DNA from: a virus | Virus record (IMG/VR): IMGVR_UViG_3300035698_017588 | Location: 1-64,000 of that record | Length of the DNA: 64,000 nucleotides | Direction: 5' to 3' (one strand) | Shown here: piece after piece, positions 29,004 through 39,862 of the stretch | Layout: the number at the start of each line of letters is the position of its first letter | Position numbering within the stretch: position 1 is the stretch's first letter | Translations under genes and position numbers: made by a program | Notes under the pieces: model-generated | Databases searched by the model: none | Told to the model about the DNA's origin: nothing | What the model saw: only the letters and a program-made list of their open reading frames with translations

Positions 29004-29934
29004 CCAGTTTTTCCGGGTGCTTTTGTTTGACGTGATTGGTAACACCGAAGGCTTTCTTCATCGTTTTGTCACAGTAAGGACAGGAAAAACCTTCAGTCGG
29101 TTTCTCTATCACTTCTGGTACTTCCTCTTCGGAACCACGGGGATCAGCGGTTGGTGCTTCCGTGGTGGTATCCGTCTCGGAGTCGTCTTCAAGGAATTGT
29201 GGTGGCACATCATTGTCGACCACTAAATCTTCAACGTCAACGGCGGCATCGGATGATTTGGTGAAGTTCCGGAGCGAGACTGGAAGCAACACCCATGGGC
29301 CTTCTGCGACGATGTGTTTTCCCTGTATTGTAAACGAGCTGTAATACAAGAGCAGATTATGATCGTTCGATTGGGAAACGATCTCTTGCAGATGCTTCTT
29401 AGAGAAAGCCTTGCGGAATCCGACGATTTTGGATGGTGGTTCGACTAAGGCGAAAACGAATTTTTCATAGTCGAGGTCATTTAGTGATTTGCCGATATCG
29501 ACAGCGACATTCCCGCTGTCATCTTGACTGTAGAACACAGAAGGGGGCAGGTTTTTCACAATGATTTCATCCACAATAGCACGTTCGTCAGAAGCAGCCA
29601 AAAGAGACGATTCAGCTGATAATAATTTCTCAATCACCAAGTCTGGTGCACCGTATTCAACACGCTTGAATTTGTCACGCCACTCACCAAGCACCTTCTC
29701 AGTACAAGATGACTCATCTGGGCTGACCAATATCAATTCGTGTCGGAAATTACCTATTGTGGCAGCTAAAGCCAATAATTCACCGCGACCGGCAGACGGG
29801 CAAATCTCAGCAGAACCAAACCAACGTGCCATGTAAAGCATGGAGTAGTCTCCATCTTTCATCTCACGTTGGACTTGGAGAGAGCAATAAAGTTGTCGGT
29901 CAATTATTGAGTCGTCGTACTGAATTCTGATCAT
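28975..29934 (-). CDS. hypothetical protein with C-terminal C2H2 zinc finger
   Basis: ATGA-coupled to the dnaE PHP gene; CPYC...H...H at the C-terminus; lies between dnaE fragments. Confidence 0.65.
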   Translation of the reverse strand: MIRIQYDDSIIDRQLYCSLQVQREMKDGDYSMLYMARWFGSAEICPSAGRGELLALAATIGNFRHELILVSPDESSCTEKVLGEWRDKFKRVEYGAPDLVIEKLLSAESSLLAASDERAIVDEIIVKNLPPSVFYSQDDSGNVAVDIGKSLNDLDYEKFVFALVEPPSKIVGFRKAFSKKHLQEIVSQSNDHNLLLYYSSFTIQGKHIVAEGPWVLLPVSLRNFTKSSDAAVDVEDLVVDNDVPPQFLEDDSETDTTTEAPTADPRGSEEEVPEVIEKPTEGFSCPYCDKTMKKAFGVTNHVKQKHPEKLDEYNAAKQD

Positions 29935-32483
29935 GTTGATGAAACCGGTTTTGGCATGGATGCATTGAGACGGTATCCACCACGGGCTTCTGCAAGGAAC
30001 CGGTCGAATGACAGGTCCCATTTCAGAGGATCGATCGAGGATAACCCTAGTAAGTAACAAACCAAACTACCACCACCACTACCCCGTGGACCAAAGATCC
30101 ATCCCTGCGACTTTCCATACATAATCAGATCCTGAGTAATCAAGAAATAACTAGCAAAGCCTTTGGAAATAAAACGAGTCAGCTCGATAGTAGCTTGTTG
30201 GACGTAAGTGACCTCACGACCATCGATCACGAACTTGCGATCGACCTTATCAAGACCTTTCATTCTCAACGCTTTCATCACAATCTCAGTCAGCTTCGTA
30301 GCATCATCAGTGATACGCGGAAACTTTGGATTGCTATCCAACTCAATGTAATCACACTTATCAACAATCTCAAGAGTAGCATCACACATAGCCTCGAAAG
30401 CACTAGATGACACCTTCTCACAGTAGCGGTTCGACGCATAATAAGACCAAAGCTCAGCCCTGGTCTTAAAATATTGCTCGCTACTATTCACATGGAACAA
30501 ATCAGGAGAATCAACAGTCGTCCCCTGAGCCGTAGCCATCATGATCTTCTGGATCTCGAAGTCCTTACGCTGAATGTAATGAGAATTGCCAGATGACAGA
30601 CCGACCAAGAAGGAATGATCATCTTCGACTTGTATACACCACACTTCTTTTAAATCAGATTTAACGACTTTAAATGGATTTTTAATCCAAACTCCATGGT
30701 GATCTTGATGATGTTTAGATCTAACTTTAGAAGCGTCAAAATACTCGCCCAACCCAATCGCAAAGATACCAGCTTTACCGATAGAACCAGTATAACCCTC
30801 CCTATGTCTTGTTGATATCCTACGACCGTCTTTTTTCTTGATTATAGCATCTTTAGCGGGTCGTAGCTGCGGAGTAACCCCGACACCAAGACAAGCAAAA
30901 GCGTGCATTAAATCAGTGAAAAGTTGGAAGGATGTAGTAAAAAAACTGCGACGAGAAATACAACCATCACCTTCAACGTAACCTCGTATTAAAACCGACA
31001 ACTGACGAGATGATAACTTAGTCCAAAATTGCGGTAATTTCTTAGCATAAACAGAAAATCCACAACAATTAGCGAACAATTTGGAAAAACCAGAAGAACA
31101 GATTCTAATTGATCTGCCTTTATCAGATACTTTAGAGATATCACTTGGAGAAAAACCAAATTGGGTAAAATATTCTTGTATCCGACTGAAACGATCAAGT
31201 TCCAAATCATTACCAGCAAATCCGAGCCTGTAGTCCTTATCGGTATGACCTTCAGCAATGTAAATGCCGAACAACCATAATAATTCATCAGTCAATTCTA
31301 TGACATTTGGTATCGGATTTATCGATTTGCCGCCAAATGGGTAAATCAACCCATCCCTTACTTTACATCTAGGGTCGTCAATATAATCACTAATAGTCAA
31401 TTCTTTTAAATCGTCATCAGGAAGAATGGGAGCGGCTACGTGTATAAAATCATCGGGACTAATATCACGAATCTCTTTCATTCCAATCAAACCGGTTTCA
31501 TGGCATTTAGAATACAATCTATGATTTTCAGTGCATACCATCACTTGGCTACCCAGAAAACCATATAATTCTTCTCTATCTCTAACCTTTCTCTTACCAA
31601 TACACTGTACTTCTCTAAGACGATTTTTATGTGTCCAAACATACTCACCAGGGCGAATGTCGCACAGCCTCTTAGAACCATTGATAGTCTGAACAGTAAC
31701 CTCAGGATTCCAACAATCATTCGCAAGAACAGTCTTCAATCCAAAATAATCTGCCAAGCCTACTAGATCCCAAAAGACCTCGTAGTCATCCTCAATCCCT
31801 GGCATTTGCAATTCGATATAGTAATCCTCACCGAATGCATCCTTAAACTTCTTTACCCACGTCGCAGCAGCTTGAAAACGCTCCTTACGAGTAGTCTCAA
31901 CAATGAGATTATCCTCTTTGTCTCGAAGCTCCTTATACCGAAGCTCATGAGCCACGGGACCATTGAGGCACCCGCTGAGAATAATCAAGCCTTCCCGGTG
32001 TTTACAAAGCTTGTCGAACCAAATACGGTTCATTTTACGACTACCAGCCCCGAAGAGCCCATCATCATAAGCTTCCGTGGTCAATTTGAGCAAGTTATGT
32101 AAACCCTGCTCTGTCTTGCAGAGCACGGTAAGGTGACGATTACGATTGATTCTAGTGGCGAGTGCGAAATTCTCAGCACGCCAAGCCTGACTCTTGAGCT
32201 TTATGCCTTGTTCGACCAACGACTGTCTTTGGGGTTCATAATCATTAAAATAAATCTCGCAGCCAAATATACTTTTCAGACCGTGTTTTTTGAATTCAAA
32301 ATGAAAATCTGGAACAGATCCCATATGACCATGTTCAGTGATGGCCATGCCGGGCCATCCATTATCGACACATTTTTCGGCGTATTCTTCGATAGTCGCT
32401 ACACCATCAAGTGCCGAATAAATCGAATGACAATGAAGGTGGGCAAATCCCGAAGATCCGGTATATTCGCTAGGTTCAGGCAT
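29931..32483 (-). CDS. dnaE: DnaE N-terminal part (PHP domain to RGS motif) containing an intein
   Basis: FAHLHCHSIYSALDG, AITEHG, GCEIY, LSGCL, AND|...|SHY, GPRGSGGGSLVCYLLG...FDRFL then stop. Confidence 0.93.
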   Translation of the reverse strand: MPEPSEYTGSSGFAHLHCHSIYSALDGVATIEEYAEKCVDNGWPGMAITEHGHMGSVPDFHFEFKKHGLKSIFGCEIYFNDYEPQRQSLVEQGIKLKSQAWRAENFALATRINRNRHLTVLCKTEQGLHNLLKLTTEAYDDGLFGAGSRKMNRIWFDKLCKHREGLIILSGCLNGPVAHELRYKELRDKEDNLIVETTRKERFQAAATWVKKFKDAFGEDYYIELQMPGIEDDYEVFWDLVGLADYFGLKTVLANDCWNPEVTVQTINGSKRLCDIRPGEYVWTHKNRLREVQCIGKRKVRDREELYGFLGSQVMVCTENHRLYSKCHETGLIGMKEIRDISPDDFIHVAAPILPDDDLKELTISDYIDDPRCKVRDGLIYPFGGKSINPIPNVIELTDELLWLFGIYIAEGHTDKDYRLGFAGNDLELDRFSRIQEYFTQFGFSPSDISKVSDKGRSIRICSSGFSKLFANCCGFSVYAKKLPQFWTKLSSRQLSVLIRGYVEGDGCISRRSFFTTSFQLFTDLMHAFACLGVGVTPQLRPAKDAIIKKKDGRRISTRHREGYTGSIGKAGIFAIGLGEYFDASKVRSKHHQDHHGVWIKNPFKVVKSDLKEVWCIQVEDDHSFLVGLSSGNSHYIQRKDFEIQKIMMATAQGTTVDSPDLFHVNSSEQYFKTRAELWSYYASNRYCEKVSSSAFEAMCDATLEIVDKCDYIELDSNPKFPRITDDATKLTEIVMKALRMKGLDKVDRKFVIDGREVTYVQQATIELTRFISKGFASYFLITQDLIMYGKSQGWIFGPRGSGGGSLVCYLLGLSSIDPLKWDLSFDRFLAEARGGYRLNASMPKPVSST
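30585..31715 (-). mobile_element. intein with LAGLIDADG endonuclease in the DnaE PHP domain (377 aa)
   Basis: CWNPEV start, CTENH, FGIYIAEG, IRGYVEGDG, VWCIQVEDDHSF...SGN|S. Confidence 0.9.
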
Positions 32484-32506
32484 CGAAAATCCAAAGAGTT
32501 GAAGTA

Positions 32507-33943
32507 ATGGCAAGAAGAAGAACACAAGAAGAATTTATTGAACAAAGCTTAAAGAAACATGGCGAAAAATATGATTATAACAAATCTGATTATATAAATG
32601 AATATACTAAAATAATAATAATATGCCGAGAGCATGGCGAATTTGAGCAAAAACCGTCAATCCACTTAAAGGGACATGGGTGCAGAAAATGCCGATATGA
32701 AAAATTAGCAGCCAATATGGGTGGTGGATTAACCGGTTTTATTAAGAAAGCTTCTAAAATTCATGATAATAAATACGATTATTCAAAAGTTGAATATTCG
32801 ACATCACAGAAGAAAGTGGTTATCATATGTCCAGAACATGGTGAATTCGAACAATTACCGTGTAATCATATTAATAAGTGTGCTGGTTGTTTGAAGTGTT
32901 CGACCGCTTACCAACCCACAAATAAAGAATTTATAAACAAACTTGTTTATAAATTCGGAGAAAGGCATGATTATTCTAAAACTATATATACATCATCGAA
33001 AGACAGAATTACTGTAATATGTCCAGAGCATGGTGAATTTCAAATTAGAGCTGAATCTTATGTAAGATCTGGATCTTGCCCTAGATGCTGCTCGTCTAAC
33101 GAACAATTGGTGATCCACGATTTTGTTACCAGCTTCGAACCAACGGCAAAATCGAATGATAGGGAAGCCATACGCCCTTTAGAATTAGATGTCTATATTC
33201 CAAGCAAAAAACTTGGAATAGAATATAATGGAAATTATTGGCATTCATTTAACAGAAATGAAACAACAGAAGAGAGAAAGAGGCACCAAACAAAATTCGA
33301 GAAATGCGAAAAATCTGGTATAAGATTATTTCAAATAAACACCACGGAATATGAAGACAAATTCGAAATAGTCCAATCTATGATCAGACACAGATTAGGA
33401 TTATCAAAAAAGGTCGGTGCCAGAAAAACAATGGTCAAAGAAATATCTAACAAAGAAGCGGGAATTTTTTTAGACCGCTGTCATATTAGTGGCCACAGAA
33501 ATGCATCTAAAAATTATGGATTGATTCTTGACGACAAATTGATCGCCACAACCACATTTAGTAAATATAAAATAGGTTGGGAAATAATAAGATACGCCAA
33601 CGAGTTAAACATAACCGTGGTAGGCGGTTTTTCTAGATTACTAAAATCATTTATAATCGACAATCGACCGAAAACAATCATGACGTTTGCTGATCTAAGA
33701 TATGGAAGTGGAAATGTTTATAAAGAATCTGGCTTCGAGTTAGTGAAACGAACGAAACCAGGATATGTCTATCTTGACTCTAATGCAAGATATATGGGGT
33801 CTAGGATAAAATTCCAAAAACATAAACTTGAAAAAATTTTAGAAGTCTTTCATACAGAACTAACGGAATCTGAAAACATGTTTCTCAACGGTTATAGAAG
33901 AATGTGGGATGCTGGGCATAATCAGTTTATTTTGAATCTCTAA
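32507..33943 (+). CDS. free-standing Hef-like homing endonuclease
   Basis: Three YDYS...C.EHGEF..C..C repeats, ELDVYIP...GIEYNGNYWHS, NGYRRMWDAG; AT-rich; paralog of 25517-27046. Confidence 0.85.
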   Translation: MARRRTQEEFIEQSLKKHGEKYDYNKSDYINEYTKIIIICREHGEFEQKPSIHLKGHGCRKCRYEKLAANMGGGLTGFIKKASKIHDNKYDYSKVEYSTSQKKVVIICPEHGEFEQLPCNHINKCAGCLKCSTAYQPTNKEFINKLVYKFGERHDYSKTIYTSSKDRITVICPEHGEFQIRAESYVRSGSCPRCCSSNEQLVIHDFVTSFEPTAKSNDREAIRPLELDVYIPSKKLGIEYNGNYWHSFNRNETTEERKRHQTKFEKCEKSGIRLFQINTTEYEDKFEIVQSMIRHRLGLSKKVGARKTMVKEISNKEAGIFLDRCHISGHRNASKNYGLILDDKLIATTTFSKYKIGWEIIRYANELNITVVGGFSRLLKSFIIDNRPKTIMTFADLRYGSGNVYKESGFELVKRTKPGYVYLDSNARYMGSRIKFQKHKLEKILEVFHTELTESENMFLNGYRRMWDAGHNQFILNL

Positions 33944-34565
33944 AGCTTATGATCTTATCGATATTTTGAATGAGTAGAGGAACGTCCGAGTCCTCAATCT
34001 CTAACACATCGAGAAGTTCATTAAAAGGATCAAATGTGACAGACTCCATTTCCTGAGTAATCAGATAAATCTTGTCACCATATTCCTTATCCCCAACATA
34101 CTTAGCCCTAGGTTGGTACCTATCAAGTGTCATGCGAGAAGCACGGGCTGACCTCTCTCGAATCAATGGATTAGCCACTATTTTGGCTACAAACTCTTTT
34201 ATCTTGTCGAATGGACGGAGTTCGACCCAAAACAGTTGCACAAATCTTTCAGCTGTCTCTGGGTCAGATAAGGATTTAATCAACCTCTTAACGAAGTCTT
34301 TGAAATACCGTTTCGATTTCGAAGAATAACCAGCATTGTAGCCATTCTCATAAGCCAAAGAACAAGCTTTGAGAGTAGAAAGAGAAGCTTCGCCCCTAGT
34401 TGCTTCCGGAAGCCAATATTCAGGAGCAATTATGTTGAGTTGTTTGAATTCGGAATCGAAGATTTTAATGTCCCAGATATCGAAAATATCAAGATAATAA
34501 ACCGAGTTACCTATCTTGATAACAACCACTTTATCTTTTGAACACAGAAATTCAAACTTCGCCAT
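33927..34565 (-). CDS. hypothetical protein
   Basis: 212-aa ORF, TAATG-coupled to the actin-like gene. Confidence 0.6.
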   Translation of the reverse strand: MAKFEFLCSKDKVVVIKIGNSVYYLDIFDIWDIKIFDSEFKQLNIIAPEYWLPEATRGEASLSTLKACSLAYENGYNAGYSSKSKRYFKDFVKRLIKSLSDPETAERFVQLFWVELRPFDKIKEFVAKIVANPLIRERSARASRMTLDRYQPRAKYVGDKEYGDKIYLITQEMESVTFDPFNELLDVLEIEDSDVPLLIQNIDKIISFRDSK

Positions 34566-35851
34566 TAGAACATTTCAGCAGCTTTCAAGCATCCTCGTGC
34601 CACAGTGAAGAGTGGACTTTTGCAAAGGATGACTTTATTAATCTCGAATGGCACTTCGAGTTCTTTGATCAATTTGATGCATCGATCATTGAATCCGGCA
34701 GGGCTGGCGGTGCCTCCTGCCATGTAGAGGTTGACACCTTCTTCGATTCTGGCTTCATTCTCGTTCTCTTTGAATCCTTCGATGATACCGGTAAGAACAT
34801 TATTAATGAGAATATCATAATGTAACACAATATCCATGCCAAGCCGGTCATCAGGCTCTTTGCCGGGAGTGAGATTAACAGACATTTTACGTTTCGACAC
34901 AGTAGTCGGAGTCTCTTTGGATTTCTTCCGGCTATCGGCATTGAATCCATGTCGTTGTGCTGTTTCATAATCAATCCAATCTCCGGAACCAACCCAGCAA
35001 AAGCTGAATATTTCTAGACCGTACTTGACATAGCTGACAGTAACGGTACCAGCACCCCAACTAATACCAATCCCCGTGCCATCGTCTGAGGAATCCAACA
35101 CAATCGCGTGTGATTCCTTGATCGTATGCCGTTCGATATTGGACTTAGTTTCATAACTATCCAAGATGACATTGACTACACGAGTATGGTAATCCAGATT
35201 GATATCTTTATTAATCGCTTTGGCGGTCGTACAGTAACACAGCTTGACACCATCACCGAATTTGCCGATGTCGTCTTCAGCCGTCTGCAACAAGCCAGTG
35301 ACAATCGTTGAGAGGATCGTCATAGCTTCTTCGTCAGCCGCAACACCGCCCTCAGCCATGGGACGCCGAAGATAATCGTTTTTGGCATAAGCGAATTCTT
35401 CTGCGTCTTTGCCGAGAATGATTGCTTGACCGTCTAGCTCGATCCAACGTGCCGGGCGTTTGGTCCCGTCAGATCTGACCTTGTTGGGATCATCGAGCAT
35501 ATTCTTCAAGAATGGAGTGACACGCTCGAAAGGCCAATAACCGTTAACCTCACTGAGGTAGCCGATTTCGCCGTTCTCTTCCTTAAAGGCAAGAACGATA
35601 TTACGGGTTCCGAGGTCGAGTCCTAAGTATTCCATTTTCATTCTCTTTGTTCTACAAATTTCGCCAAGCCGAAACACCCTTGGTTTCTTGGCAACCTTAT
35701 TTACTACCGAAGCAATGCGGGTATGCCCACGAACGATATCGATCTTGGACAGTGCGGGCTTGGTAGGTTTAGGAGCAAGAGGGGTATCAGCGATGACAGG
35801 GATTGGACGCTTTACAGTGTCCGACAATATTCTATTAGGTTCACTCGCCAC
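34565..35851 (-). CDS. actin-fold ATPase, volactin-like
   Basis: Phosphate-1 GLDLGTRNI, LRRPM.EG, phosphate-2 GIGISWGAGT, SGDWID, adenosine AGGTASP.GF, PLFTVARG; core starts at 35635. Confidence 0.85.
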   Translation of the reverse strand: MASEPNRILSDTVKRPIPVIADTPLAPKPTKPALSKIDIVRGHTRIASVVNKVAKKPRVFRLGEICRTKRMKMEYLGLDLGTRNIVLAFKEENGEIGYLSEVNGYWPFERVTPFLKNMLDDPNKVRSDGTKRPARWIELDGQAIILGKDAEEFAYAKNDYLRRPMAEGGVAADEEAMTILSTIVTGLLQTAEDDIGKFGDGVKLCYCTTAKAINKDINLDYHTRVVNVILDSYETKSNIERHTIKESHAIVLDSSDDGTGIGISWGAGTVTVSYVKYGLEIFSFCWVGSGDWIDYETAQRHGFNADSRKKSKETPTTVSKRKMSVNLTPGKEPDDRLGMDIVLHYDILINNVLTGIIEGFKENENEARIEEGVNLYMAGGTASPAGFNDRCIKLIKELEVPFEINKVILCKSPLFTVARGCLKAAEMF

Positions 35852-36107
35852 TCTTTGCCCTTGAACCGAAGCTAGTCTTGGGTGCTTTCTTCATCATCGA
35901 AGCAGGATCGGGTAATGGAACTTCCTGTTTCTTACCGTAGCCATTTTCCTCTCTTGTTGGAAAATCCAACGTCTCCACATTGCCCTTATAGACTGTGGGA
36001 GTCTTGGGTGCTTCAACATTAATATTGATGACGGATTCCTTCTTCGAAAACACCCATGCCCAATAATTTGCTGAAACAAGAAAAAGGATCATCCAGACAA
36101 TTGACAT
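35841..36107 (-). CDS. small N-terminally membrane-anchored protein
   Basis: MSIVWMILFLVSANYWAWVF hydrophobic N-terminus; overlaps the actin-like gene. Confidence 0.55.
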   Translation of the reverse strand: MSIVWMILFLVSANYWAWVFSKKESVININVEAPKTPTVYKGNVETLDFPTREENGYGKKQEVPLPDPASMMKKAPKTSFGSRAKSGE

Positions 36108-37222
36108 ACATCACCCAAGATCTTGAAGGAAATACCACGATCAGTGCAATGCTCTATGATCCTAGTCATAAAAGTCTGACGTTTAATGGATTCAGAATTA
36201 TCGCCAGCTGCGACCAAAGCACTGAACACACTATTAGAATTGACCAGGATAGACTTTGGAGAGCACGACACCAAGATCTCAATGGCAGTCAGCATATTAT
36301 TGGAAGAGACAGAAAAGGGCGGTGCGAAATTGATATTCGACGTGAACTGCTTAACTGCGAACGTCCCAACCGGACCCAAAGACGGAGTGAACAAAGGTCC
36401 CGGACTAGTATGGTCAAGCAAGACTATCTGTGCGAATGTTCGAGACATATCGAATTCCGTGATCATCGCACCCGGCAAAGCGAAATAAAAATCCGCGTCG
36501 ATATCGGGGTCCAAAGCAAAAGTCAAATAATTATACTGACAAAATTGATAATCATTCGAATAAGAGTCAGTCAGCAATACATCATTACCACGGACCTTAT
36601 CAAAAAGTTTAATAAACCCGTCGCGGTTTGAATTGTGAACTCCGGTCATTGAACCACGAGATTGTGTAACAACGATCTCGTCTTTTTCAGTAGACAACAA
36701 GTAGTCTAAAGATTGGCGTGAATAATTCGACGACAATGAAGCCCTAACTGTTGGCAACGCTTCTCGGAATTTAACAGATGCGAGCCACCCTTCCAAGACT
36801 GAAACATCATATGACTTAGGGTGCAGCAGTAAACTCAATTCTAAAAACAAGTCGGTGATGTTAGTACACCGATGCAATAATCGTGCCAACGTGCCCTTAT
36901 GAGCTATTAAACCGAACGGGATAAAATCCGGCTTAACATCGACATTCGTCAAAACCGGTTGAGTCTTCAAATTAGCTTGGAGAGCAACGTGGTTAATCTT
37001 CTTGCCGAATGGGTTCTGGATTTTAGAACTAAATGGCAAGATCTGAGGAACATACATTGCTTTCACATTTGTAGTATCAAAATCAGCCGGTGGTTCCAAG
37101 CACTGATACGACAAGTCTGCAATCATTACCCATTCTGTTGGAGATTTCCGGACTTTATCAAAGAGCCCAGAAATAGACAATCCATCAGAAAACTTGATAC
37201 GATGTAATTCTTGATATTTCAT
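36089..37222 (-). CDS. hypothetical protein
   Basis: 377-aa ORF; no motif recognised. Confidence 0.65.
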   Translation of the reverse strand: MKYQELHRIKFSDGLSISGLFDKVRKSPTEWVMIADLSYQCLEPPADFDTTNVKAMYVPQILPFSSKIQNPFGKKINHVALQANLKTQPVLTNVDVKPDFIPFGLIAHKGTLARLLHRCTNITDLFLELSLLLHPKSYDVSVLEGWLASVKFREALPTVRASLSSNYSRQSLDYLLSTEKDEIVVTQSRGSMTGVHNSNRDGFIKLFDKVRGNDVLLTDSYSNDYQFCQYNYLTFALDPDIDADFYFALPGAMITEFDMSRTFAQIVLLDHTSPGPLFTPSLGPVGTFAVKQFTSNINFAPPFSVSSNNMLTAIEILVSCSPKSILVNSNSVFSALVAAGDNSESIKRQTFMTRIIEHCTDRGISFKILGDVCQLSG

Positions 37223-37250: not shown

Positions 37251-38759
37251 TCAACATTCGCCGGATTCCGGAAAGATAAAGTAATCATCCTGACAACACT
37301 CATCACCAGTTGGCTCTTTAGGACGAACCAACTCGTAAGGATATCTACCGGGTCGAACGCCCTCTGGGCCATACCATTTGAGATCTTCTGAACATGCTGC
37401 AGCATCAGTCCCAGAAATCCAATCGAATTCATGTTTTTCAAATGAACGGCGAGTGAAGCATCCGTCTTGAGGTTCCCATTGTTGTAGATCTGGGTCCTCG
37501 ACTTCTACTTCAGGAAATGCATTAGACAAAGGCGTCGTCTTTTTTATAGCTGTCGCTACACGTTCCACAGCAACATACCGGCCTTCAACTATAGGCCGAG
37601 TAGTGGTAGTACCAGCCAAAATATCAGTCGTAATCAACTGAAAAGCATCTTGAGAAACCAAACGAGTATAATTGACATAAAAAGTGTCATTCTCGCAGTC
37701 CAACCGAAAATGAGTCAAAGTCCCATCAGGACGAACATTCGAATCATCTGGGAATTCACAAGGCTCAGTCCGGATAAAACCGTCCGGAATATCACCACGA
37801 TCACCAGTGGGACCACGTTGACGGGCTTTCCAAACAGTTTCTTCGGGCCAACCACCGGGAATTTCGAATTTGAGAAGTCCGATATTTTGATCAAATTCGA
37901 TCACAATATCATCTGGATTAGCCCCGATGCCATTGACCACTATTTCAAAAGAGCCATCTACTGGATTAATATCCAACTGGAAAATGACATTAGGCACAAG
38001 ATTCAAGGAATTCGTCACAGTTTGTGACAATGCGATATTTGGACCAGTCGTAAGACCTAGAGACTGGTCAATTATTTGCTGGCGTAAACGTGAGAAAACC
38101 GTTTTCTCTTCATCAGCAACAAAAGGGCTGCCAATCACATCAATCCAATATACCAACTGGTCCCCGAACGAAAACGAACCAGGGATTTCATAAAACCCGA
38201 AAAACCTAAGGCTAATAGGTGTGATTGTAGGATGATTAAAATACGTCCCAATCGGAATAGGAACATAAGCTTGGCCGGTAACGACATCATTAACCTTAAA
38301 AGGATAATATGTCGCCTCATTTGGGGCCGGAATACCAACCTCACCATCAGGACCTTGCTCGCCCTGGGGGCCTCGATCGCCAATACAGAGATATCGGTAG
38401 TAATAAGCGACGAGCTTTTGTTCGTTGACGTCGATATTGATTTCGCCATTACCACGATAGCGAATATCGATTAGCCCGTCAGGACTGTAGAAATAATAGT
38501 AATATGCGTCAGTGCCAGGAGCGATCTTGAAAACGGAAACATCAAGACCTTGAAGAGAATCCTGCAGCGTAACGAGCTTGTTATAAATTACCGGTGTGAT
38601 CAACCCATCCTGGACAGGCGATGCAAGAGGAATCAACTCATTCAGCTCATTCTGCACCCAACGAATAGATCCGCTTTGATACCGCCACTCAATTCCATTT
38701 GTGTCGACAAACAGTTGACCGTTTATCGGATTACGAGGGAATTTAGTGACAGCTGCCAT
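37251..38759 (-). CDS. putative virion/tail-fibre protein with short collagen-like segments
   Basis: FPRNPINGQLF...W.Y...W, LASPVQDGLI, GDRGPQGEQGPDG and GPTGDRG triplets. Confidence 0.6.
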   Translation of the reverse strand: MAAVTKFPRNPINGQLFVDTNGIEWRYQSGSIRWVQNELNELIPLASPVQDGLITPVIYNKLVTLQDSLQGLDVSVFKIAPGTDAYYYYFYSPDGLIDIRYRGNGEINIDVNEQKLVAYYYRYLCIGDRGPQGEQGPDGEVGIPAPNEATYYPFKVNDVVTGQAYVPIPIGTYFNHPTITPISLRFFGFYEIPGSFSFGDQLVYWIDVIGSPFVADEEKTVFSRLRQQIIDQSLGLTTGPNIALSQTVTNSLNLVPNVIFQLDINPVDGSFEIVVNGIGANPDDIVIEFDQNIGLLKFEIPGGWPEETVWKARQRGPTGDRGDIPDGFIRTEPCEFPDDSNVRPDGTLTHFRLDCENDTFYVNYTRLVSQDAFQLITTDILAGTTTTRPIVEGRYVAVERVATAIKKTTPLSNAFPEVEVEDPDLQQWEPQDGCFTRRSFEKHEFDWISGTDAAACSEDLKWYGPEGVRPGRYPYELVRPKEPTGDECCQDDYFIFPESGEC

Positions 38760-39862
38760 CAATCTACGCCTATGTTATCAACTGTGTACAGTGAATCGCC
38801 TTCATGGATAATCTCACTGTTTAGCTGCTCCATTAAAGACTTATTATATTTATCTGCGTGTTTATCACGATCAAAATATCGGCTAAAGAGATCTTGAACT
38901 TGCATCCTGGACGGAGCACCATGACCCCTATTAACTTCGGGCTCAAGGGAATCTTTCAGTCGAAGGAATCTGACGACCTTTGCTCCCTTATCCAACAATT
39001 CTTTCCGGTATTGAGTCGTCAAATCATCAGGGAGATACTGCTCCGCAATAATCCGAAAATGATTCCCCATCACATCATGTTCCGATAAACCAGCCACATC
39101 ATCAAGACCAATCGTTAACATATGAGGGGGAATCATCTGGCCAGGATTATCAGTGTACATCAGAGGACGCAAATCCACGAAGCTATGCTTCCCGGTGTCA
39201 CAATCGTATTCAACAAAACCATGGGGCACAACACCCTCATCGAATGAGAAAGGAATCGGCGACCCCACATAGTGAGTCTTCACGCCAGCCCGATGATAAC
39301 AATGAAAATGTCCGGTGAAGACCTGACCAGCCGCTCGGTGGTCGAAATTAATGGCCTTTTGTTCTTGGAATAAGAAGCAAAGGTTGTACGAGGCCCCGAT
39401 ACATCCAATGTGAGTGAGTAAAACGTCGCTTTGGCGACATTCCTTGTCGATCTCGTCGACGACGTCCATATAAGCCTTGTCGACGGCGATGAACGGGATC
39501 ATCCAAAATCGACGGTCAAATAACTCGACGCGATGAATGTCTTCCAGCACGTGACAGACGTCCGCTAACGGTCGGAGTGATGTGATTTTCCAGTTGTACT
39601 TGTAGTACATGTCATGATTGCCTGGAAAGACATACCATTCTTGATCGTATTCTCTTTTCGTAGCCGCGAGAAACTCATAAACGACGTGCATCACTTCAAC
39701 GTTAATTGACTCACGATCATGGAAGAGATCACCCAAAACAAAAACGTGTTTAATACCGTTCTTCTGGGCGTAACTCCGAATCGATTTCGCTGCCATCAAA
39801 ATGTCTTTGGTCCGACCGTGAAGACCAAAATGAAAATCTGCCGTTAAAAGGACTTTGCTCAT
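38759..39862 (-). CDS. SbcD/Mre11/gp47-like nuclease
   Basis: ADFH, GDLFH, PGNHD, LTH, GHFH, YVGSP metallophosphoesterase motifs. Confidence 0.92.
   Translation of the reverse strand: MSKVLLTADFHFGLHGRTKDILMAAKSIRSYAQKNGIKHVFVLGDLFHDRESINVEVMHVVYEFLAATKREYDQEWYVFPGNHDMYYKYNWKITSLRPLADVCHVLEDIHRVELFDRRFWMIPFIAVDKAYMDVVDEIDKECRQSDVLLTHIGCIGASYNLCFLFQEQKAINFDHRAAGQVFTGHFHCYHRAGVKTHYVGSPIPFSFDEGVVPHGFVEYDCDTGKHSFVDLRPLMYTDNPGQMIPPHMLTIGLDDVAGLSEHDVMGNHFRIIAEQYLPDDLTTQYRKELLDKGAKVVRFLRLKDSLEPEVNRGHGAPSRMQVQDLFSRYFDRDKHADKYNKSLMEQLNSEIIHEGDSLYTVDNIGVD

Follow-up and report, generated by a model that had tools for sequence, protein, structure and literature searches.

Volactin (VolA) is a cell-shape factor of Haloferax that forms dynamic filaments in vivo, with dynamics that resemble those of ParM (PMC10869688), and Schiller et al. 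reported that the tips of these filaments touch the membrane (PMC10869688). A CdpA-like neighbour beside volactin in H. volcanii was noted by Liao et al. (PMC12126565). In the C. glutamicum prophage CGP3, the actin-like protein AlpC is co-transcribed with an upstream adaptor, AlpA, and is needed for efficient phage DNA replication (PMC4446434); the phi29 membrane protein p16.7 organises membrane-associated phage DNA replication together with host MreB (summarised in PMC4446434). Here, we describe a volactin-family actin gene and, directly upstream of it, a gene for a small predicted single-pass membrane protein, hereafter the adaptor, in the first 64 kb (64,000 nucleotides, hereafter the window) of the 95-kb IMG/VR virus record IMGVR_UViG_3300035698_017588, which has a CheckV completeness of 27%. 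Membrane-tethered volactin-type filaments serving phage DNA replication or positioning are the best explanation of this pair, and we give this explanation a probability of about 60%.

Compared by description, the pair resembles AlpC/AlpA in that a phage-encoded actin is accompanied by an upstream adaptor gene, with phage DNA ending at the membrane in the case of CGP3, and it resembles phi29 in its combination of a small phage membrane protein with an actin cytoskeleton. It differs in that AlpA is soluble and binds DNA, recognising alpS repeats, whereas the partner in the window is predicted to be a membrane protein and no repeats were found. CGP3 is moreover a cryptic prophage, whereas the window actin belongs to the core genes of huge phages with a T4-like type of replication, and phi29 borrows the MreB of its host, whereas the window phage brings its own actin. 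The pair may also be compared with the PhuZ spindle, a phage-encoded cytomotive filament by which very large, nucleus-forming jumbo phages organise the cell interior; PhuZ has the tubulin fold rather than the actin fold, and the five near-complete relatives of the window phage lack a tubulin-family gene. To our knowledge, no membrane adaptor has been described for PhuZ, and the phage cytoskeletons known so far comprise two tubulins, PhuZ and TubZ, and a single actin, AlpC, in a cryptic prophage.

Family, fold and phage origin of the actin

The actin gene (34565..35851, minus strand) encodes 428 aa from a GTG start, residues 71-428 forming the core and residues 1-70 an N-terminal extension. Volactin (PF25216) is the sole Pfam match of the protein at E <= 0.1 (E 3.9e-38, 132.1 bits, with a curated gathering cut-off of 35 bits); residues 76-425 map to profile positions 3-321 of 321, and a six-frame search gives 131.9 bits on the same model. 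These values are far above chance, as are those of the adaptor family profile described below (E down to 1.9e-39). In 14 control genomes, the Volactin model exceeded its cut-off only in Haloferax volcanii. At E <= 0.1, the window actin was matched neither by MreB_Mbl (PF06723), on which haloarchaeal volactins reach 22.8-25.8 bits against a cut-off of 27, nor by the StbA/ParM, FtsA and PilM models. A tblastn search over 72,556 plasmids returned five records, all of them haloarchaeal megaplasmids with 27-28.5% identity over 97% of the core; against the Volactin model, the volactin genes of these records reach 436-466 bits. A preliminary description of the window had assigned the gene to volactin rather than to MreB, ParM or FtsA; with a single Pfam match and plasmid relatives that are all haloarchaeal volactin genes, this assignment is borne out. 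Judged by its sequence, the 428-aa gene is thus a divergent but genuine volactin-family actin. Neither PHROGs nor NCBIfam holds a model matching it, and standard annotation therefore calls it hypothetical.

The motifs quoted in the preliminary description were located by regular expression (GLDLGT at 77, RRPMAEG at 162, YHTRV at 221, TGIGISWGAG at 259, GDWID at 290 and GGTASPAGF at 379), with the exception of P..VARG, which is absent as written; the true sequence at 413 is PLFTVARG (P...VARG). The nucleotide-binding motifs (GLDLGT 77-82, KESHA with E246, GISWGAGT 262-269 and AGGT 378-381) are invariant across 17 relatives and align with those of MreB and the haloarchaeal volactins. Among the invariant residues are D79 of phosphate 1, E246, which aligns with the catalytic Glu of MreB, and the GGT of the adenosine motif (379-381). 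The phosphate-2 Asp of MreB is replaced by Ser264 in the phage actin and by Ser in the haloarchaeal volactins too, so that this replacement is a family trait. Indeed, the phosphate-2 Ser, GDWID and RPM..G are common to the Halogeometricum and Natrinema volactins and vary little or not at all among 55 diverse members.

The phage actin therefore shares with VolA (HVO_2015, neighbour HVO_2016) its Pfam family, with full-length profile coverage, and its signature motifs, the phosphate-2 Ser and GDWID included. It differs from the haloarchaeal volactins, to which it is 27-28% identical, in belonging to a separate phage-only clade, in scoring 132 bits on the model where the archaeal members score 436-466, and in having two conserved insertions in addition to the 70-aa N-terminal extension. 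The insertions, at about 123-135 and 313-330, are defined relative to both the haloarchaeal volactins and MreB. Phage-clade members have them near-invariant (RSDGTKRPAR; ETPTTV..RK....LTPG), and they could be contact surfaces specific to the clade.

The N-terminal extension, which is translated, contains a conserved peptide at residues 5-21 (35789..35839, minus strand; PNRILSDTVKRPIPVIA). A variable linker, basic and rich in Pro, separates this peptide from RVYRLGD, a conserved strand that immediately precedes the core. The peptide is conserved at the protein level among the closer relatives and is modelled as disordered or as a short helix (predicted local distance difference test, pLDDT, about 30). 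Side observations on this end of the protein concern its start and its fusions. Met71 and Met73, just ahead of the core, are preceded by AAAGAG, as is the GTG start (35625-35675, minus strand, codons 60-75), and for 18 of 120 database homologues the gene call uses the short start; an isoform consisting of the core only, from Met71 or Met73, is possible. Distant family members carry N-terminal fusions to a zinc ribbon (P0201, 50 bits), a response-regulator receiver (P0226, 35 bits) or, weakly, a ParB-type helix-turn-helix (P0184, 19.7 bits), and the N-terminus therefore looks like the family's site for add-ons.

In an AlphaFold2 (AF2) model of the actin (pLDDT 75.5, predicted template modelling score 0.76), residues 1-55 are disordered. 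The VIA Z scores of this model are 23.9 for MamK, 23.6 for BeeR, 22.5 for crenactin and 22.3 for MreB. MamK, BeeR and MreB, all three of which form filaments, are the best matches by structure (Z 22.3-23.9, 294-304 aligned residues) as well as by profile, yet are only 14-18% identical to the phage actin. The window actin alone as a query found no relative in PDB; a profile of 55 family members matches MamK (1e-16), BeeR (6e-12), MreB (4e-9), FtsA (4e-8) and PilM (2e-3), with no Hsp70 or sugar kinase among its matches. Against the possibility that the protein groups with non-polymerising ASKHA proteins, the sequence profile thus favours MamK, BeeR and MreB.

A word-index search returned more than 325 close homologues of the actin, all with PF25216 and many on contigs of 100-440 kb, and IMG/VR holds 40 related actin loci on contigs of up to 408 kb. 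Across 185,579 prokaryote species genomes, a single relative was found, on a 4-kb contig of a metagenome-assembled genome. Among GenBank phages, relatives of the actin occur only in two uncultured huge phages (595 and 485 kb), and megablast against these phages gave no match. The phage origin of the gene, as first described, is borne out by these viral contigs and by its near-absence from prokaryote species genomes. In a quick maximum-likelihood tree (not a finished search) with MreB as outgroup, the phage actins form one clade, tallied as 37 rows (36 IMG/VR actins, the window actin and one unlabelled metagenome protein), that is apart from the haloarchaeal volactins with a support of 100 in the Shimodaira-Hasegawa-like approximate likelihood-ratio test. 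Over the same loci, the median identity is 57% for the actin, 49% for the PHP domain of DnaE and 26% for a 503-aa neighbour (p503), and the actin is under strong purifying selection. In some relatives, a LAGLIDADG intein interrupts the actin gene, and inteins also occur in the replication genes of this lineage; an intein in the actin gene fits a gene that the phage cannot lose. Three metagenome proteins of about 700 aa (P0129, P0131 and P0139) have a LAGLIDADG intein near the phosphate-2 region of a volactin-family gene.

The window itself is a replication and recombination module, with DnaE pieces containing inteins, a UvsX-like recombinase, an SbcC-like protein, a metallophosphoesterase, a DEAD-type helicase carrying an intein, and HNH endonucleases. 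That it comes from a huge phage is indicated by the PHROG matches of the viral record to UvsX-like, SbcC-like and HNH proteins and by near-complete relatives of more than 200 kb. Five of these relatives, 354-408 kb long and 98-100% complete, contain no tubulin-family gene, and the genome of the window phage is presumably about 350-400 kb, like those of the huge aquatic phages that carry this actin lineage. Its host is probably a bacterium, because the proteins are not acid-rich and the polymerase is a bacterial-type DnaE. The segment 33927-37222 of the window was present, at >=50% of sampled words, in 14 runs from salt-lake or lake-water metagenomes of 2017-2019, which may stem from one campaign.

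The membrane partner and its haloarchaeal parallel

The three minus-strand open reading frames (ORFs) of 88, 428 and 212 aa that had been reported at this locus are present at the coordinates claimed for them, and both of their overlaps are genuine. The adaptor gene (35841..36107, minus strand) encodes 88 aa and is translationally coupled to the actin gene, whose GTG start lies 8 nt ahead of the TGA of the adaptor ORF and gives an overlap of 11 nt. At the other end of the actin gene, TAATG is common to its stop codon and to the start of the 212-aa ORF, an overlap of 1 nt, and the start of the adaptor ORF in turn overlaps the end of an upstream 377-aa ORF. Promoter and terminator scans gave hits at chance level only. 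The original observation, an actin-fold gene with an upstream transmembrane (TM) ORF, is thereby confirmed.

The adaptor contains a single hydrophobic stretch, a predicted TM helix at residues 3-21 (36045..36101, minus strand; IVWMILFLVSANYWAWVFS; mean Kyte-Doolittle value 1.64 over 19 residues). KK and then a tail that is basic and rich in Pro come next; homologues of the adaptor score 2.0-3.4 on the same scale at the TM position. A profile built from six positional homologues matched 29 database proteins, several of which share contigs with actin matches. In the resulting alignment, the N-terminal TM helix is joined by a variable linker to a conserved C-terminal peptide, ELPPEIIAPxLKKPPRPxGGFGSRV, which in the window reads VPLPDPASMMKKAPKTSFGSR (residues 63-83; 35859..35921, minus strand). 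This tail is the sole strongly conserved part of the family, and P76, F80 and G81 are invariant. The 88-aa ORF is thus a genuine gene. Neither a Pfam match nor a DNA-binding domain was found in it.

The pairing of the two genes was followed in 28 loci that have an actin at least 52% identical and an upstream flank, some of them near-identical to each other. A homologue of the adaptor was detected by the family hidden Markov model (HMM) directly upstream of the actin in 26 of these 28 loci, so that the membrane protein, as had been proposed, is a conserved companion of the actin. The remaining two have a small ORF with an N-terminal TM helix in the same slot, one of them ending in ...KGFGDMQ. 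No fusion of a TM protein to the actin was found in 120 close homologues, and a homologue search without length limit returned, apart from forms with inteins, only distant members with fusions at the N-terminus.

At greater distance the partner becomes harder to follow. Most loci in the tier of 36-43% actin identity (L040 is an exception) have an ORF of 93-123 aa in the adaptor slot; one of these has a TM helix, and several end in (F/L)-G-x-(E/D). Their position and end motif hint that they are counterparts of the adaptor, which we regard as suggestive only. Of note, the upstream ORFs of L042, L043, L045 and L046 lack a TM helix and have N-termini that look amphipathic by eye (MFKWLKRLLG, MLGWLWRKIVG, MMGLFGFLRK); these may be membrane-targeting helices that replace the TM anchor.

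A similar arrangement was found in haloarchaea. In the three megaplasmid loci examined, out of the five plasmid records, a DUF7139 protein directly precedes the volactin gene. In these haloarchaeal proteins, a long acidic linker connects four TM helices to a C-terminal tail that is short and conserved, and they correspond to the CdpA-like protein noted next to volactin in H. volcanii (PMC12126565). The VolA gene likewise lies directly after that of a membrane protein in which a disordered linker connects a membrane anchor to a C-terminal tail, again short and conserved. Phages and haloarchaea thus have a common layout, in which a membrane anchor, a linker and a short conserved tail are encoded just upstream of the actin. 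The phage partner has one predicted TM helix in 88 aa, whereas proteins of the HVO_2016 type have four in about 300 aa, and the phage pair lies in a bacteriophage replication module, whereas VolA belongs to a cellular shape system. The GGFGSRV of the adaptor seems to resemble the archaeal tails (GLLGSIRSLF and similar), a resemblance that we treat as a lead only. The adaptor was also considered as a DUF7139 homologue, but no similarity was detected (hhalign probability 0.1; hmmsearch E >= 0.07 against three DUF7139 proteins). The three archaeal loci (L049, L050 and L051) are on Halogeometricum, Haloarcula and Natrinema megaplasmids; one of the volactins is annotated as 'cell division protein FtsA' and one of the DUF7139 proteins as 'permease'.

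Linkage to dnaE and competing explanations

The first piece of the phage DnaE (DNA polymerase III alpha; 29931..32525, minus strand) contains the PHP domain, an intein and the start of the NTPase domain (Pfam PHP 5.1e-36, DNA_pol3_alpha 1.6e-21). In 27 of the 40 loci, the tier of 36-38% identity included, a dnaE gene follows the actin within 5 kb on its downstream side. The actin-adaptor pair sits at the head of this DnaE module, a conserved place that points to DNA replication; the positioning of capsids and the remodelling of the host, which had also been proposed, are not favoured by any of the present evidence. The 212-aa ORF (p212; 33927..34565, minus strand), TAATG-coupled to the actin, lies between the two genes in the window. 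Its HMM homologues occur in 14 of the 40 loci, in ten of them directly 3' of the actin. Where actin and dnaE part ways, p212 stays by dnaE in four loci and by actin in one: it is found 1.2-4 kb from the actin, right before dnaE, in L016, L018, L019 and L023, and after the actin in L026, which has no dnaE in its flank. It is absent from L012 and from most of L029-L039 (L034 keeps it), where dnaE directly follows the actin. The synteny expected for the trio therefore holds for the actin-adaptor pairing (26/28) and fails for p212, which is missing from many loci, mostly stays with dnaE once apart from the actin, and is consequently an optional gene rather than a member of a constant trio.

In the mechanism that we favour, the actin and the 88-aa bitopic membrane protein would be made together from their overlapping, co-directional genes, and the actin would polymerise with ATP into filaments. 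The cytoplasmic, basic, Pro-rich tail of the adaptor, which ends in the conserved ...LKKxPK/R..(G)FGSR.. peptide, would bind the actin through that peptide, and this contact would tie the filaments, or their ends, to the inner membrane. The system would then organise phage DNA replication or position the replicating DNA, a role proposed because the pair heads the DnaE module in nearly all relatives and because AlpC/AlpA and phi29 p16.7 provide precedents. Polymerisation, the contact between actin and tail, and the cargo are the steps that we infer. A broader proposal is more tentative and, in our estimate, falls short of even odds: a whole lineage of 350-400 kb phages could run a membrane-anchored actin apparatus that organises DNA replication as the actin counterpart of the PhuZ spindle, with the tail of a one-helix tether gripping the filament and with the same anchor-linker-tail logic at work in haloarchaea.

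Several points weigh against membrane-tethered filaments with a role in replication. The adjacency of actin and dnaE may reflect shared expression timing rather than shared function, and the glycosyltransferase-like (GT2-like) gene that most relatives carry next to the pair could hint at the cell envelope instead. As Ser stands in phosphate 2 in place of the usual Asp, the ATPase chemistry may differ from that of MreB and ParM. Hsp70 nucleotide-binding domains trail the best actins by about 2 Z units only (Z 21.9 versus 22.3-23.9), so that structure alone is not decisive. The adaptor has no detectable homology to DUF7139, and the archaeal parallel is therefore architectural only. Finally, the 93-123 aa ORFs of the 36-43% tier have no detectable homology to the adaptor.

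The alternative that survives best, which we nevertheless consider unlikely, is a DNA mover of the ParM or AlpC type, whose filaments, coupled to their cargo by an adaptor that binds DNA, would push or position phage genomes or their plasmid-like pseudolysogenic forms; the membrane protein would then be a landing site or an unrelated neighbour. The ParM-like dynamics of volactin (PMC10869688) are consistent with such a mover, as is the prophage CGP3, in which AlpC uses AlpA to bring phage DNA to the membrane (PMC4446434). The phage actin, for its part, has its own conserved N-terminal peptide, and the distant family member P0184 has a weak ParB-type helix-turn-helix, below cut-off, at its N-terminus. 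The conserved companion, however, is a predicted membrane protein without a DNA-binding domain, and the actin has no ParM/StbA match in Pfam. The genes overlap with no intergenic region between them, and near the module there are no iterated centromere-like (parC-like) repeats and no repeat family of more than three copies, which argues against a ParMRC-type system.

Slightly less probable still is an actin-fold ATPase, non-filamentous or only oligomeric, that, like PilM on PilN or like FtsA, docks on the bitopic membrane protein and serves as a membrane assembly platform. PilM recognises PilN, which is bitopic, through a short cytoplasmic peptide of the latter (PDB 5eou), and both FtsA (4e-8) and PilM (2e-3) are reached by the family profile; the Hsp70 scores and the Ser of phosphate 2 would also be compatible with such a platform. 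By sequence profile, however, MamK, BeeR and MreB are far ahead, and they also top the structural ranking; the FtsA model of Pfam has no match to the window protein, and the founding member of the family forms dynamic filaments in vivo (PMC10869688).

Least probable is a remodelling of the host, in which the actin and its tether, together with the glycosyltransferase-like neighbour, would redirect envelope synthesis or alter cell shape or size for a large virion and burst: volactin is a cell-shape factor in Haloferax (PMC10869688), the partner is membrane-embedded by prediction, and most relatives have the GT2-like gene immediately upstream of the adaptor gene, but the GT2-like gene matches its Pfam family under the cut-off and is missing from the window phage, where an unrelated 377-aa ORF takes its place and the pair is intact, and the linkage to dnaE is both stronger and wider.

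A literature search found no paper describing volactin-family actins in phages, and the jumbo-phage surveys that were checked do not mention them. The present locus places such an actin, as a core gene with its own predicted membrane tether, in a widespread lineage of giant phages whose relatives lack tubulin, and it links viruses of bacteria with an actin family known for its role in archaeal cell shape. Should the filaments prove real, giant phages would have a second, independent way to organise the infected cell. The phage pair could then be a small, tractable model for the tying of volactin filaments to membranes, and the two-gene module is small enough for direct testing in E. coli.

Other genes of the neighbourhood

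None of the smaller neighbours was identified by family models: the adaptor, p212, p377 and p503 have no useful PHROG or NCBIfam match, and p212 and p377 have none in Pfam either. The AF2 model of p212 combines a small beta domain with a helical bundle (pLDDT 76). It had no Foldseek match at E <= 0.001, and its VIA-wide matches are generic helical hairpins only (Z <= 7.4); Atlas scores of at most 0.76 were uninformative.

Upstream of the adaptor, most relatives of the window phage encode the GT2-like protein, of 472 aa (L004:4036-5454), which matches Pfam Glycos_transf_2 with 21.7 bits, under the cut-off of 23.3. In the window phage and its closest relative, this slot is filled by the 377-aa ORF (p377; 36089..37222, minus strand), which overlaps the start of the adaptor gene. 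It was considered whether p377 is itself a GT2-like protein, and this was ruled out by the lack of similarity between the two. The next gene upstream, p503 (37251..38762, minus strand), is a conserved neighbour of the module, with homologues of 23-31% identity upstream of the actin in most related loci. It contains a short collagen-like Gly-X-Y run (GPQGEQGPDGEVG) and has Cys-rich ends.

An HNH homing-endonuclease gene (32507..33943, plus strand; phrog_559, E 1.1e-111) lies on the opposite strand between p212 and dnaE. It is absent from that position in the 79%-identical relative (L002/L009), and similar HNH genes follow the actin in two small viral contigs (L047 and L048).

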